A stretch of DNA of 64,000 nt, from NCBI GenBank assembly GCA_963751455.1, contig CAVVUN010000001.1, forward strand, positions 32,001 through 96,000, read 5' to 3'. A program made the position numbers and the translations under genes. Within the stretch, counting starts at the first letter, position 1, and each line of letters starts with the position of its first letter. This document shows positions 26,960 through 31,899 of the stretch, piece after piece. The stretch is from Nitrospirota bacterium. Lineage in GTDB: Bacteria; Nitrospirota; UBA9217. The notes beneath the pieces were generated by a model. That model did not search any database and was not told the DNA's origin. It saw nothing but the letters and a program-made list of their open reading frames with translations.

Positions 26960-27858
26960 ATGCGATTCAAATTCAGCCCCGACGAACTTCTCTCGCTCTC
27001 TTTCCTCGCGATCCTCATCGCCATTGTCTGTTTTTCCCCTTCGAACCCCGCCGCGGTCAGGCTCCTGCTCATCTACTTTGCACTCGGGGGCGCCATCCTG
27101 GGCCTGACCCTCTACCGCGCCCGGAACGAAAAGGCCACGCTGGTTTTCGTCATACATATCGGGTTTACTATTCTTCTGATCTTGATTATCTTTAACAGCC
27201 TGGGAGACCTCATCCCGGGCATTACATCACGCAGATTCGATGATGTCCTCATTCGGATCGATTATACTCTATGGGGAGATCACCCCACTGTCTGGATGGA
27301 ACGGTTCATCAACCCGTTTCTGACGGCAATCCTTCAGTTTGCCTATATCTCGTATTACTTTATACCCGTATCGCTCGGAAGCGTTCTCGTTGCAAAAAAA
27401 AGATATGACGAATTCGACATGTCACTCTTCGGAATTATTCTCTGCTTCTATCTCTCCTATATCGGGTACCTGCTAGTTCCCGCAGTCGGGCCCCGGTTCA
27501 CGCTCGATCATCTCCAGACGGTCAGCTTGCAGGCCGGTCCCTTCATAAAAGCAATCCAGGAAGGTCTGGACAGGCTGGAACACAATAAGACCGATGCGTT
27601 TCCCAGCGGTCATACGGCTGTAGCACTCATGTCGCTCTTTTATTCATGGAAGTTAAAGAAAAGATCCTTTTCAGAATCCTGCTTCCCGTGGCTGCGGCGC
27701 TTATGGTCTCAACGGTGTACCTGCGGTATCATTATGTGATCGACGTCATCGCCGGCATTGGCCTGACCGCTGTTGCCGTCTTTCTCGCTCCGTTTCTAGA
27801 GGCATGGCTGTTACGCGCAGCCGGGCATCCTCGCAAGCAGCGTCATGGCGGCGCCTGA
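26960..27858 (+). CDS. PAP2/AUR1 (IPC-synthase-like) membrane phosphotransferase, one frameshift
   Basis: PAVGP, DAFPSGH, YLRYHYVIDV motifs. Confidence 0.85.
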
Positions 27859-28400
27859 TACGAGTGGAATCGCCAGGTTGTCGTTCATCCGGAACGAAAC
27901 AAGCTCTACAGCAGCAGCGACAACGGCTCCGCCCAGTATTATCGGCTTGATTACCTCTATACCCGCTGCCGGAAGGGCAACCCCGCGGTAACAGCCGCCA
28001 GAACAAACGCAAAGGTTCCTTCCAGGCTTTTGTCCCCGATCCTTGTTTTTCCGTAGCGCTCCCCTATTGTCGTAGCTGCAACGTCGCCAAAGGCCAGAAA
28101 GCAGATGGCAGCTGTTGCTATATCCGTTCTATAGAGATACAGGGACAGGCCGATGCCGAGGATATATGCAGGTGTTCCGGTAAGCTTATGTTCCTCGTTA
28201 CTGCGGACAAAGCTCCTGAATCTGTTGAATACAAAGCGGTTGACTGCCGGGATGCGAAGGCGGAGAAGATCGAGCCCCAGCACAATGACGAACACCACGG
28301 CATAGAAAATCAGTGCCTTTTCTCTTCCAAGAACAAAATAGAGGGAGAGAAGACCAACGCCGCCGAAGAGATGGTAAAATTTACGACCGAGATGCTTCAT
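27811..28400 (-). CDS. CTP-dependent lipid kinase (SEC59/DGK1/phytol kinase family), frameshifted
   Basis: RKFYH, GDVAA.TIG, KSLEGT, NDNLAIP motifs. Confidence 0.82.
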
Positions 28401-28406
28401 AAAGTC

Positions 28407-28523
28407 AAATCCGAAATTCTAATTTCGAAATCCTAACCAAATCGAAATGAGAATAACAGAGTCCTCCTGCACATTGCTTGTTTTTAGATTTAGATATTAT
28501 TCAGGATTTCGTGCTTAGGATTT
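28407..28523. repeat. TTCGAAA-type heptamer palindromic repeat
   Basis: aaatccgaaattctaatttcgaaatcc ... ggatttcgtgcttaggattt. Confidence 0.6.
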
Positions 28524-28534
28524 CCAGTTTGTCG

Positions 28535-29655
28535 TCAAATCTTCTTCTCATATATCCTGTACTTCTTATACAACTTCCCGCCCATCAGCTCGCAGCCTTT
28601 TTTCATCAAATCGTTGTCCTCGAGCACCCAGGACATCTCGGCCCGTTCATACCCTTTGCGCATGGCGGCTTTGAAGGACTCCAGGTAAAGCAGCCCCTCG
28701 ATTCCCTTTCTTCGGAACTCTTCTTTTACGCCCATGGTGAGCACCCGTATATCGGAGATCTTCCTCGAATACCATAAGAATTTCAAAATCTGAGCCGGTC
28801 CGAGCCTGCCGTTGACCCTGGCCAGTACCTGGTTGTAGTCGGGAATCGCCATGAAAAATCCGACGGGATTGCCCTTAATCTCAGCCATGATCAAAAGCTC
28901 CGGCACGATGAGTGGTTTCAACCGCTTCGCCATGGATTCTATTTCCTGGTCGGTCATCGGCACAAAACCCCAATTATGGCTCCACGCCGAATTATAGATG
29001 TCCTTTACAGCTTCAAGTTCTTTCCTGAAGTTTTTCATGTCCGCCGGACGGATCTTCAGTCCAGGTGTGCGAGCTTTGAGGGCCGAAGCCAGTTTCTCAA
29101 GCCGTTCTGCCGCGGATACATCTTTAATGACGGATATATAGGCGTATAGATCCTTGGCCTTCGTCAGTCCGCACTGTTCCATATGATCCAGATAATACTG
29201 CGGCGTGTACGTCATCATGATCATAGGCGGCGAATCAAATCCCTCAAGAAGGAATCATATTTCATCGTTCGTCGACGGATTCATGGGACCGCGCATGACC
29301 TCTATGTTTCGTTCCTTGAGCCATTCTGCAGCAGTATTACCCCAGACCGCCCGCGATAGTGGCATCGGTCAAGACATTCGAAAAAACCGAAAAAACCGGC
29401 TTGTTCTCTGTGTATGTTGATGTGATTACGGTCTATGATCGCCGCGATCCTGCCCAGAGAGATCGCCGTTACGGACTGCGAGGAAGCAGGCTGCTTCTGC
29501 ATGACGAAAGAATGGGTTCTTTTCACGCGAGGATGAACTTCATGTCGCTGATAAAATGGGGCACCTGGTATCGGGATTCCCGTGATAGACTTTCCACGGG
29601 AAGCGGATGAATTGGTCCAATATGTTTCTTGGTTATTAACCTTCTCGATTTGCAT
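28535..29655 (-). CDS. GNAT acyltransferase, bacterial ceramide synthase (bCerS)/YghO-like, frameshifted
   Basis: GRIAAI, GFFGFFEC, MMTYTPQYY, NWGFVPMT, EMSWVLEDN motifs; adjacent to spt-like gene. Confidence 0.75.
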
Positions 29656-29680
29656 TTGCGATAATGAAACAAAAACTGCT

Positions 29681-30916
29681 TTAAATGACTCCCAGTTTTT
29701 TCCCGGCTTTTTCGAAAACGGTGGAGAACCCGGTCAAGCATCTCATCAGTATGCGTAGCCATATAGCTTGTACGGATCATGCTTCGGCCGGCCTGTGTTG
29801 CAGGCGGCACCACCGGGTTTACAAATACTCCTTCGTCGTCCAGTATTTTGCCTCATCATGAATGCCCGCTCCATCTCTCCCATTAACAAGCGGGATGATC
29901 GGGGTCTCTGCTGCGCCGGTATCATAGCCCATCTGCCTGAAAGCCTTCATCATTTTGTTGGTATTGTGCCAGAGCCTTTCCCTGCGTTCCGGCTCCCCCT
30001 CGATGATCTCAAGTGCCGCGTAACGGCTGCAACGGAGGCGGGCGGCGGCGGCGGAAAATATAAGCGGGCGCGACCTTGTGTTTCATATAATGTATTATGT
30101 GGCGTCGGCGGCGACAAATCCCCCCACGGAAGCCATGGACTTGCAGAAGGTGCCCATGATCATGTCGACTTCCTCCTCAACGCCGAAATGTTCGCATGTC
30201 CCCCGGCCGGTCTGGCCCAGAACGCCGATGCCGTGGGCGTCGTCGACCATTACCCGGGCGCCGTATTTTGTGCCGCGCCTTAGGATCTCCGGAATGGGCG
30301 CGATGTCCCCCTCCATCGAGAAGACTCCGTCCACCACGATGAACAGCGCCCCTGCCGCCGTCCTGCCGCATATCTCAAAGAACGTACTCAGGTCCGATAA
30401 GGGGTCGTTGTGGCGGAACTTGCGGACTTCGCCGAAGGAGAGGCGCGCCCTCCATCGATGATGCAGGCGTGATCCTGCTTGTCGAGGTAGGACCGTGTCC
30501 CCCTTGCCGACCAGGCAAGAGATCGCCCCGAGATTGACCTGGGTCCCGGTGGCGAACGTCACGGCGGCGTCCTGCCGCGTGAACTCCGCGAGGCGCTCCT
30601 CCAGGAGCACGTGAAGGTCGAGCGTGCCGTTCAGGAAGCGGGACCCCGCGCAGCCGGAGCCGTATTTCTTCATGGCCTCGATGGCGGCTTCCTTCACCTT
30701 CGGGTGGCTTGTAAGACCGAGGTAATTGTTCGAGCCGAGCATGACCATCTTCCTTCCGCACACGGTGACTTCGGGGTCCTGCTCCGACTCGACAACACGG
30801 AAATAGGGATAAAAGCCGGCAGCCATAACCTCTTTTGCCGCTGTATACTTTTTACATTTATCAAAGCAATCCAATGCGTGTTCCTCCGCGATTCCTGAAG
30901 TATTTGCTTCACTCAA
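29681..30916 (-). CDS. spt: Serine palmitoyltransferase-like alpha-oxoamine synthase, frameshifted
   Basis: [40 protein letters not shown] motifs. Confidence 0.75.
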
Positions 30917-31899
30917 TGTAACCAGTTCTGTTCACGGTACCATTGCCAGGTCGTCTCCAACCCTTTCCGGAGCGGATAGGCCGGTGCAAAACCGATTTGT
31001 TTTTCGGTCGTGCTGACGTCGCAAACCCAGTATCTTTGCGCGGCCTCCCGCACTTTCTGCCGGTTCGTAATTGGCGCTCTCGATCTGAGAATGCCGCTGC
31101 ATTCGTATGCGAGCGCCATAAGGTAAGCGACGGGATACGGTATTCTGACGGTAAAAGCTTTCACTCCTCCTGTCTCGATTAATATTTTTCTGAAGTCAGA
31201 CCAGGAGTATGTCCTGTTCTCAGCCACAAAATATATTCCGCCGTTCGGCGTTTGACGTTCAGCAGCCAGGACCATGGCCGAAGAAAGATCACCGACATAG
31301 CAAGGATTGATATAGTGTTCGCCGCTCCCTATCTCGAGCGTAATCCCGCGGCTGGCCCAGCAGAAAAGCTCATATACATCGCGGTCGCGAGGGCCGTATA
31401 CTGCCGAAGGCCGCACGATAACCACAGGAAAAATGTCCTTGTAACTGAGTGTCGCCTGCTCGGCAAGCATCTTGCTCCGGCCGTAATCGGATACCGGGCG
31501 CAGCGGATCACCTGCGCAAACCGGTTTGCCGTCCGTGCTGGGACCTGCTGCTGCCAAACTCGATACCAGGATGAACTTTTTGATGCCGGGGTTATGACGG
31601 GCACATGCTGCCAACAGATTGCTGGTACCGACATGGTTTACCGTGTAGTAATCACGTGCGCGAATCGCCTTCGTCAGACCTGCGGCATGAAACACAATCG
31701 ACACGTCTTTTACAGCGGAAACGAGCGATTCCGGATGACGGCAATCTCCCCGCACAATCTCGACGGGCAAGCCGGCAAGCCACTGCGGACGACGCGGGTC
31801 CCGTACGAGGCAGGCGACATCGTAACCTCGCTGGAGGAGCAATTCCACGAGGTGGCTCCCCACGAAACCCGTACCCCCGGTCACGAGCACTCTGGTCAA
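30913..31899 (-). CDS. NAD-dependent epimerase/dehydratase (candidate ceramide reductase)
   Basis: TGGTGFVG and YGRSK motifs; overlaps the spt start. Confidence 0.85.

Follow-up and report, generated by a model that had tools for sequence, protein, structure and literature searches.

The bacterial route to ceramide has been described, with a periplasmic location for its reductase CerR (PMC11087976, in the text available), and in Escherichia coli BL21 the genes yghO (ECD_02850) and ECD_02852 are listed as homologues of the acyltransferase and the reductase (PMC9386255, likewise in part). For the head group, the proven bacterial homologue of yeast Aur1 is BT_1522 of Bacteroides thetaiotaomicron, a phosphatidylinositol (PI)-dihydroceramide synthase encoded with myo-inositol-phosphate synthase (MIPS) (PMC9246714, PMC8791184); in its available sections, the latter study records no match in this species to the eukaryotic ethanolamine phosphorylceramide synthase. 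Bacteria also produce phosphoethanolamine- and phosphoglycerol-ceramides (PMC10331486, discussion), and the available part of a review names enzymes for PI- and galactosyl-ceramide and none for PE-ceramide (PE, phosphatidylethanolamine; PMC10191378). Here we describe five genes in a 64,000-nucleotide stretch (the window) of contig C1 (CAVVUN010000001.1) from a Nitrospirota genome, referred to as G000, whose family is referred to as f1. These encode an extended short-chain dehydrogenase/reductase (SDR), a serine palmitoyltransferase (SPT)-like enzyme, a large GNAT protein, a membrane kinase-like protein and a convergently transcribed PAP2 protein. The explanation that we favor for the whole, although with some reserve, is a ceramide-forming trio joined to a PAP2 protein that would transfer a head group other than inositol, with the kinase serving as a general lipid kinase.

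Four of the five genes are frameshifted in the window assembly, the SDR gene alone being intact, and an intact, collinear copy of the cluster, at 77-86% DNA identity on the 36-kb contig C7 of the same assembly, was the query for homology searches throughout. Judging from these comparisons, the SPT-like, GNAT and SDR proteins are almost certainly the Spt, bCerS and CerR of the bacterial pathway, which is the assignment that an earlier annotation made from the DNA letters alone (the sequence-only reading) had proposed. The best NCBIfam model for the SPT-like protein was NF047600, a Bacteroidota-type Spt, at 568 bits, compared with 390 bits for bioF and 327-404 for the Kbl models, and in a search of the PDB it scored 440 bits with the SPT of Sphingobacterium multivorum (3a2b) versus at most 328 with AONS and KBL. 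Its pyridoxal phosphate-lysine motif reads GT(Y/F)SK(S/T) versus GTLGKA in the genome's own bioF, a separate gene located between bioB and bioD in the biotin operon. The bcerS product, whose gene directly follows spt, is 34% identical over 377 aa to YghO/ECD_02850 (E 2e-79), and the CerR candidate, which begins straight at the Rossmann motif, is 29% identical to ECD_02852 (E 2e-33). Both G000 copies of the SDR are the genome's best matches to ECD_02852 (115 bits vs 74 for the next SDR). Orthologues of cerR are 52-69% identical within f1 and were not found in five of five bCerS-less genomes tested, in which the best matches had 28-35% identity. Weighing against the assignment is that the Spt score is below the curated cut-off of its model (568 vs 640 bits). 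In a 21-row SPT tree, BioF and known Spts were represented by a single sequence each, on long branches of weak support. Homologues of the three genes of Caulobacter crescentus and E. coli BL21 (ECD_02854, ECD_02850 and ECD_02852) all occur here in one orientation, each being G000's best match to its E. coli BL21 counterpart. Unlike in those organisms, the window cluster has no AcpR/AasR pair, no cpgABC-like genes adjoin it, and its Spt is closer to the Bacteroidota type. A FabF-like ketoacyl synthase gene, possibly for a dedicated acyl supply, adjoins bcerS in one genome (G048, L053:8681-9943), and in an f3-type genome another precedes the cluster (L107:3066-4328).

The candidate enzyme for the head-group step is the PAP2 protein. 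Its AlphaFold model (pLDDT 88) had yeast Aur1 as the best Foldseek match over the whole length (9vj4 and 9ivc, E 1e-4, TM 0.58/0.56), well ahead of YodM, SMSr and PgpB; the best phosphatase was YodM (E 0.05, TM 0.36). Aur1 was also its best profile match, and the motifs FPSGH and HYxxD were invariant in 20 homologues. In motif C3 the protein has S-T, like Aur1, where the phosphatases YodM and PgpB have S-R, and a conserved PAxGPR segment is without a lysine at the phosphatase C1 position. It thus departs at both sites from the phosphatase scheme, which we take to be K-x6-RP for C1 and S-R-x5-H for C3. The AUR1-like family call of the sequence-only reading was borne out by the structural match, membership of PF14378 and the shared motifs. 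With BT_1522 and yeast Aur1 the protein shares the PAP2_3 family, the Aur1 fold, the FPSxH and HYxxD motifs and S-T in C3; unlike BT_1522, it is linked to the ceramide core and not to genes for MIPS or PI synthase, and it occurs in a family without detectable MIPS.

It could be argued that the PAP2 protein does no more than neighbor ceramide genes and works as a common lipid phosphate phosphatase, acting on phosphatidylglycerol phosphate, undecaprenyl-PP, lipid A or ceramide 1-phosphate, given that it has weak NCBIfam matches to LpxE, UppP-type and PgpB models and that in most other Nitrospirota families its gene is separated from the trio and frequently follows a YacP/NYN gene. We judge this unlikely, as the whole-length match to Aur1 far exceeds those to phosphatases, the C3 arginine is absent, and PAP2 occurs almost only with bCerS in two phyla. 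Among 261 Nitrospirota genomes, 105 of 107 PAP2 carriers had bCerS, compared with a base rate of 128/261, and among 131 genomes of a second phylum, probably Desulfobacterota, the figure was 17/17 (base rate 41/131), with bCerS and PAP2 side by side or one gene apart in 12 of the 17. A kinase of SEC59/DGK1 type was seen next to PAP2 in none of these 17 carriers. In family f13, in which the PAP2 and bCerS genes are unlinked, the same two of five genomes hold both. Across 80 metagenome loci, PAP2 stands beside the trio in several kinase-free arrangements, and at some of them a second bCerS paralogue is found on the other side of PAP2. This second paralogue is divergent (38-39% identity) at L172, L175, L176, L179, L180, L190 and L197; at L190 and L197 spt directly adjoins PAP2, the close bCerS being missing. 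Several points temper the case for a transferase: the genomes are related, so that there are fewer independent events than the counts suggest, and a large number of them are incomplete metagenome-assembled genomes; two PAP2 carriers, G008 (85% complete) and G252 (98%), had no bCerS match; and the PAP2 protein scored 28 bits with the BT_1522 family model NF052609, for which the cut-off is 480. On balance, we consider the PAP2 protein to be a probable ceramide head-group transferase, that is, a phosphoceramide synthase, based on its sequence and its modeled fold.

As to which head group would be transferred, MIPS was searched for as PF01658, with the B. thetaiotaomicron MIPS, found by the same search, as the control. 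MIPS was found neither in G000, nor in 22 of 23 f1 genomes, nor in any of five genomes of family f3. The sole f1 match among PAP2-bearing genomes (L297, contig C98 of G174) is divergent (E 1e-20) and lies among foreign-looking neighbors on a short contig, which is likely misbinned. Phosphatidylserine decarboxylase turned up in each of the 80 PAP2 carriers tested (of 124 known), G000 has psd-pssA and a pgsA-like gene, and none of its four CDP-alcohol transferase genes sits with an inositol gene. Since MIPS was not detected in f1 or f3 as detailed above and phosphatidylserine decarboxylase was present in every carrier tested, the donor in f1 is likely PE or phosphatidylglycerol (PG), giving phosphoethanolamine- or phosphoglycerol-ceramide, and we are fairly confident that the head group in this family is not inositol.

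Inositol phosphoceramide, the product of Aur1 and BT_1522 and one that the sequence-only reading had suggested in the form of lipids of this type, is correspondingly improbable for f1, even though the protein has the Aur1 fold and 19 of 20 family members have a weak match to NF052609. Further observations in its favor, and against a non-inositol head group, come from elsewhere: beyond f1 and f3, MIPS was present in 33 of 34 PAP2 carriers among the Nitrospirota and in 15 of 17 carriers of the second phylum, and PAP2 lies within ~2 kb of MIPS in G157 (L296:5459-9422), where the locus also has a CDP-alcohol transferase, and in G278 (L294). Other branches, such as those of G157 and G278, may therefore make inositol phosphoceramide. 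MIPS is, however, kept where PAP2 is missing (3/3 genomes of f13 and 4/4 of f19), from which it appears that MIPS does not follow PAP2. Two possible markers of inositol use were rejected. One was the residues that precede DAFPSGH (GIKR versus HNKT or GTNR), compared at 64 loci, five of which could not be parsed: G365, G334, G300 and G396 have the NKT typical of f1 together with MIPS, and G039 has GIKR without it. The other was an alternation of the kinase with MIPS, a pattern that came from two lineages only and that does not hold in the second phylum, MIPS being present there in most genomes that combine PAP2 with a relative of the kinase.

The kinase-like protein is assigned, by its motifs and modeled fold, to the CTP-transferase family of SEC59/DGK1 type, with CTP use and substrate being predictions. 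The motifs RKxxH, GD, KSxEG and NDN are invariant, and its model (pLDDT 91) matched CdsA (4q2e, Z 9.9, rmsd 4.9, 164 residues aligned) and an archaeal CTP transferase (5guf, Z 7.7); a Z of 9.9 is modest for a helical protein, and the family call rests mostly on the motifs and on the names that sources give to relatives, which are dolichol kinase or diacylglycerol/polyprenol kinase. Foldseek returned CdsA only at E 0.13, and searches of Pfam, NCBIfam and PDB sequences with the kinase gave no match. Because G000 has a separate CdsA, a cytidylyltransferase role is less likely. The RKxxH triad has been described for a Plasmodium prenol kinase, in a family that includes the Synechocystis phytol kinase (PMC10849223, in the part available), and a conserved aspartate (Asp177) is essential in Dgk1 (PMC2459266, also in part). 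The SEC59/DGK1-type family call of the sequence-only reading holds up on the triad, the GD motif and the CTP-transferase fold. Dgk1 presumably also has the RK pair of the triad. By its motifs RKxxH, GD and KSxEG, and by a CTP-transferase fold that is also that of CdsA, the protein resembles yeast Dgk1, Sec59/dolichol kinase, VTE5/Slr1652 phytol kinase and Plasmodium PolK; it differs from them in being a minimal bacterial form of 196 aa. The description of the head-group enzymes as eukaryote-like overstates the matter, in that both families are common in bacteria: the kinase profile matched 6672 clusters at 50% identity, the nearest Atlas clusters being mostly bacterial, and BT_1522 is itself bacterial. 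One relative of the kinase is fused to PlsY (P0240), and a search for longer fusions returned a single weak match. Another relative carries a fused glycosyltransferase family 21 (GT21) domain (P0232), and in some ceramide-less Nitrospirota the kinase is found near GT21, GH1 and PHP genes (L085:3777-8585, L074, L088).

There is good reason to think that this kinase is not dedicated to ceramide. Among the genomes that carry the kinase, 19/71 in Nitrospirota and 15/28 in the second phylum lack bCerS, and conversely the kinase was not found in 76 of the 128 bCerS-bearing Nitrospirota genomes. Among 53 f1 genomes, bCerS, kinase and PAP2 are adjacent in the order of the window in 28, which indicates that the order is not due to chance; in 11 the kinase is elsewhere while PAP2 stays by bCerS; nine have the kinase alone, without Spt, bCerS or PAP2; and five could not be resolved owing to fragmentation. 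The nine kinase-only genomes lack the genes found to either side of the kinase in the window, and G089, of family f3, has likewise kept the kinase without ceramide genes; in all ten, the Spt search gave BioF- or Kbl-type matches only, or none. The kinase motifs were intact in the six of these ten genomes that were examined, and for the five pairs compared dN was 0.13-0.42 versus a dS of at least 1.0. Purifying selection acts on the kinase even where Spt, bCerS and PAP2 are all lacking. Throughout f6 (3/3 genomes) and f8 (6/6), bCerS is absent and the kinase present; the f6 kinase gene is next to mqnA-tolC, and where checked the kinase mostly stays in an mqnA-CDF-kinase-tolC-coxG block. The sequence-only reading had named unlinked kinase and PAP2 genes in relatives as an outcome that would count against it; such unlinking was found in part for the kinase, as in the 11 f1 genomes above, and not for PAP2.

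These distributions bear on the proposal that the kinase phosphorylates ceramide or a sphingoid base with CTP, providing a route to ceramide 1-phosphate independent of CpgB with PAP2 as partner phosphatase or transferase. Like the cpgB gene of Caulobacter, the window gene is a lipid-kinase gene in a predicted sphingolipid-making organism; unlike its product, CpgB is soluble, ATP-dependent and of DAGK_cat type, and follows sphingolipid genes across genera (PMC10331486, as far as its available text goes). The proposal gains from the position of the kinase between spt and PAP2 in f1 and, with different surroundings, in f3 (order SDR-spt-kinase-PAP2), a recurrence that makes some tie to the pathway likely and so counts against our separation of the two. 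It also gains from the in vitro phosphorylation of diacylglycerol (DAG) by CpgB, in that lipid kinases can evidently be promiscuous (same source), and from the finding that G034 and G047 have no DAGK_cat match above the cut-off. We nonetheless regard a ceramide or sphingoid substrate as improbable, and a new ceramide kinase as unlikely, in view of the kinases kept intact without bCerS, the many bCerS genomes in which no kinase was found and the f1 genomes in which it stands apart from the trio; CpgB, in contrast, hardly occurs outside sphingolipid producers (PMC10331486, within the same limits). In addition, the PAP2 protein is without the phosphatase arginine and usually without the kinase. 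G000 has a DAGK_cat/YegS-type gene elsewhere, and in G292 (L295:5136-6020) an unrelated DAGK_cat/YegS kinase, of the CpgB family, directly follows spt-bcerS-cerR-PAP2 and is the better candidate for a pathway-tied ceramide or DAG kinase. The suggested route to phosphosphingolipids is thus supported as regards the class of product, and not as regards ceramide or sphingoid phosphates made by the kinase.

The kinase is likely a general lipid-alcohol kinase, and we rank DAG first among its substrates, ahead of a prenol and then of ceramide or a sphingoid base, while recognizing that this choice is itself somewhat short of even. DAG is placed first on the logic that recycling of the DAG released by head-group transfer would explain both the linkage of the kinase and its retention; the PlsY fusion and the DAGK_cat gene that follows PAP2 in G292 point the same way. 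What speaks against DAG is that a DgkA-family gene is present in 49 of 53 f1 genomes, leaving no obvious gap in DAG kinase activity, and the kinase as a substitute for a missing DgkA was rejected, with DgkA in 49/53 genomes of f1, 8/9 of f3, 3/3 of f6 and 6/6 of f8. The presence of DgkA in the same genomes weakens the case unless the fused form of DgkA acts on undecaprenol. This DgkA-PAP2 fusion (G000:C9:349284-349985), which follows ybeY and an HD-domain gene, is present in 145 of 261 Nitrospirota genomes and may, as in Bacillus, be an undecaprenol kinase. The second-ranked substrate, less favored yet by no means negligible, is a prenol (farnesol, geranylgeraniol, octaprenol or undecaprenol), salvaged during menaquinone or carrier-lipid turnover in the manner of phytol and dolichol kinases, with the place of the kinase in the cluster being incidental. 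Within f1 the kinase stays with mqnA, tolC and the CoxG/START-like gene whether ceramide genes are there or not, in f6 it adjoins mqnA, and its RKxxH triad is that of the Plasmodium prenol kinase (PMC10849223, in part); the triad and GD are, however, common to members of DAG-kinase type (Dgk1 Asp177, PMC2459266, in part), f3 and f8 have no mqnA nearby, and the PlsY fusion points to glycerolipids. A prenol substrate would alter only this part of the explanation and leave the four-gene unit unchanged.

The explanation that we favor can be put together as follows, its activities being predicted from the identities, folds, motifs, synteny and patterns of presence and absence given above. The Spt, bCerS and CerR homologues would make (dihydro)ceramide by the known bacterial route, and the PAP2 protein would then take a phospho-head group from a glycerophospholipid donor (PE in all probability, or else PG, but not PI) and transfer it to the ceramide, with the release of DAG. 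The functional unit would then be four genes, cerR-spt-bcerS plus the transferase, and the kinase gene would belong to the surrounding mqnA-CDF-kinase-tolC-coxG-hlyD-ABC block. With DAG as substrate, the kinase could recycle the by-product of the transferase together with DAG of other origin. A further point on the other side is that no lipid data for these organisms were found.

Genes were called from a six-frame translation of the window, with Pfam searches of the products, and the five genes and the convergent overlap of kinase and PAP2 were confirmed (Table 1).

Table 1. Features of the ceramide cluster in the window (putative functions; indels relative to the C7 copy)
Feature	Position in window	Strand	Remarks
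cerR-like NAD-dependent reductase (extended SDR, epimerase family)	30913-31899	-	Intact, 328 aa; PF01370, E 1e-38
spt, SPT-like pyridoxal phosphate enzyme	29681-30916	-	Frameshifted, 13 non-triplet indels
bcerS-like large GNAT, ~370 aa	28535-29655	-	Frameshifted, 7 non-triplet indels; PF00583
SEC59/DGK1/VTE5-type membrane kinase-like protein, 196 aa	27811-28400	-	One frameshift near 27977
Aur1-fold PAP2_3 membrane protein	26960-27858	+	PF14378, E 3.5e-23; alternative start 26918; main frameshift near 27655
Tail-to-tail overlap of kinase and PAP2 genes, 48 bp	27811-27858	both	From sequence; same length in C7 copy

In view of the fact that an intact copy exists on C7, the window copy might be a truly decaying duplicate of a working one. 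In total there are 24 non-triplet indels relative to the C7 copy, all in the four broken genes (three in PAP2, one in the kinase and none in the SDR, in addition to those of spt and bcerS listed in Table 1), and the second copy lies within the same assembly. The substitutions between window and C7 are mostly at third codon positions, the same as in the intact SDR and hlyD genes; only two new in-frame stops were found in the four broken genes; and the unrelated neighbors mqnA, CDF, RND and tolC are broken as well. Local identity to C7 is patchy, varying from 61 to 95%, and GC rises to 59-70% at 30101-30800. Taken together, the third-position bias, few new stops, broken neighbors and patchy identity and GC favor an error-rich consensus over decay, so that the frameshifts are probably errors of the consensus, and we consider a decaying duplicate improbable. 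Also against decay are the 5.4% contamination of the source assembly and the nature of C7 itself, a 36-kb contig that is collinear with C1 at 77-96% identity. The stretch is probably a poor consensus, with C7 coming from a close relative. Coverage by long open reading frames (ORFs) is 0.27 at 60-80 kb of C1, compared with 0.6-0.9 in most nearby blocks, and dense indels of 1-2 bases break most genes at window positions ~25500-39000.

The cluster is set in a conserved block, with tolC-hlyD-RND-mqnA-CDF upstream (window 21756-26890) and tolC-coxG(START-like)-hlyD-ABC-macB downstream (31977-38148), and the tolC/hlyD/RND/mqnA/CDF/coxG block persists in genomes without ceramide genes. The lipid-binding START-type protein and the two export systems could transport lipids or quinones. 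A scan of the locus for promoters and terminators gave signal at chance level. Elsewhere in the window, positions 19664-21603 (+) encode an iron-sulfur membrane protein resembling FtrD, together with a multiheme c-type cytochrome; the reading frame of the latter stops at a TGA, which may be a break or encode selenocysteine, and resumes in the ORF that follows. An intact 3401-aa protein at 53759-63964 (-) has SpvB, TcdB-midN, FG-GAP and RHS domains and is polymorphic-toxin-like; after it comes a region of low GC that contains a 157-aa ORF and a gene for an LRR protein, and these two may be immunity genes.

In the literature, we found no report of a ceramide pathway in Nitrospirota, although the supplements of an earlier study may list members of the phylum as predicted producers, none of sphingolipid synthesis with an SPT in Thermodesulfovibrio, and no paper dealing with PAP2 proteins of this family or with a ceramide kinase of SEC59 type; Desulfobacterota have already been named as potential sphingolipid producers (PMC11334938, in the part available). 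The ceramide core is a known pathway of mostly known chemistry, and the PAP2 protein adds one testable candidate enzyme. The variant described here is an Aur1-fold transferase tied to the ceramide core in lineages without detectable inositol synthesis, and since E. coli makes both PE and PG, the candidate could be tested simply in that host. The kinase is a small bacterial member of the Dgk1/dolichol-kinase family that lends itself to substrate screening. More broadly, though only as a tentative possibility that we hold below even, the Aur1-fold PAP2 proteins may be a family of bacterial ceramide-phosphoethanolamine or -phosphoglycerol synthases fixed to cerR-spt-bcerS in at least two phyla, accompanied by a CTP-dependent kinase, encoded tail to tail with them, that returns the released DAG to phosphatidate. 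If this is true, the family would fill the step for which the Bacteroides study, in its available text, found no gene (PMC8791184), and the PAP2 protein and the kinase would be the bacterial counterpart of the yeast Aur1 and Dgk1 pair.

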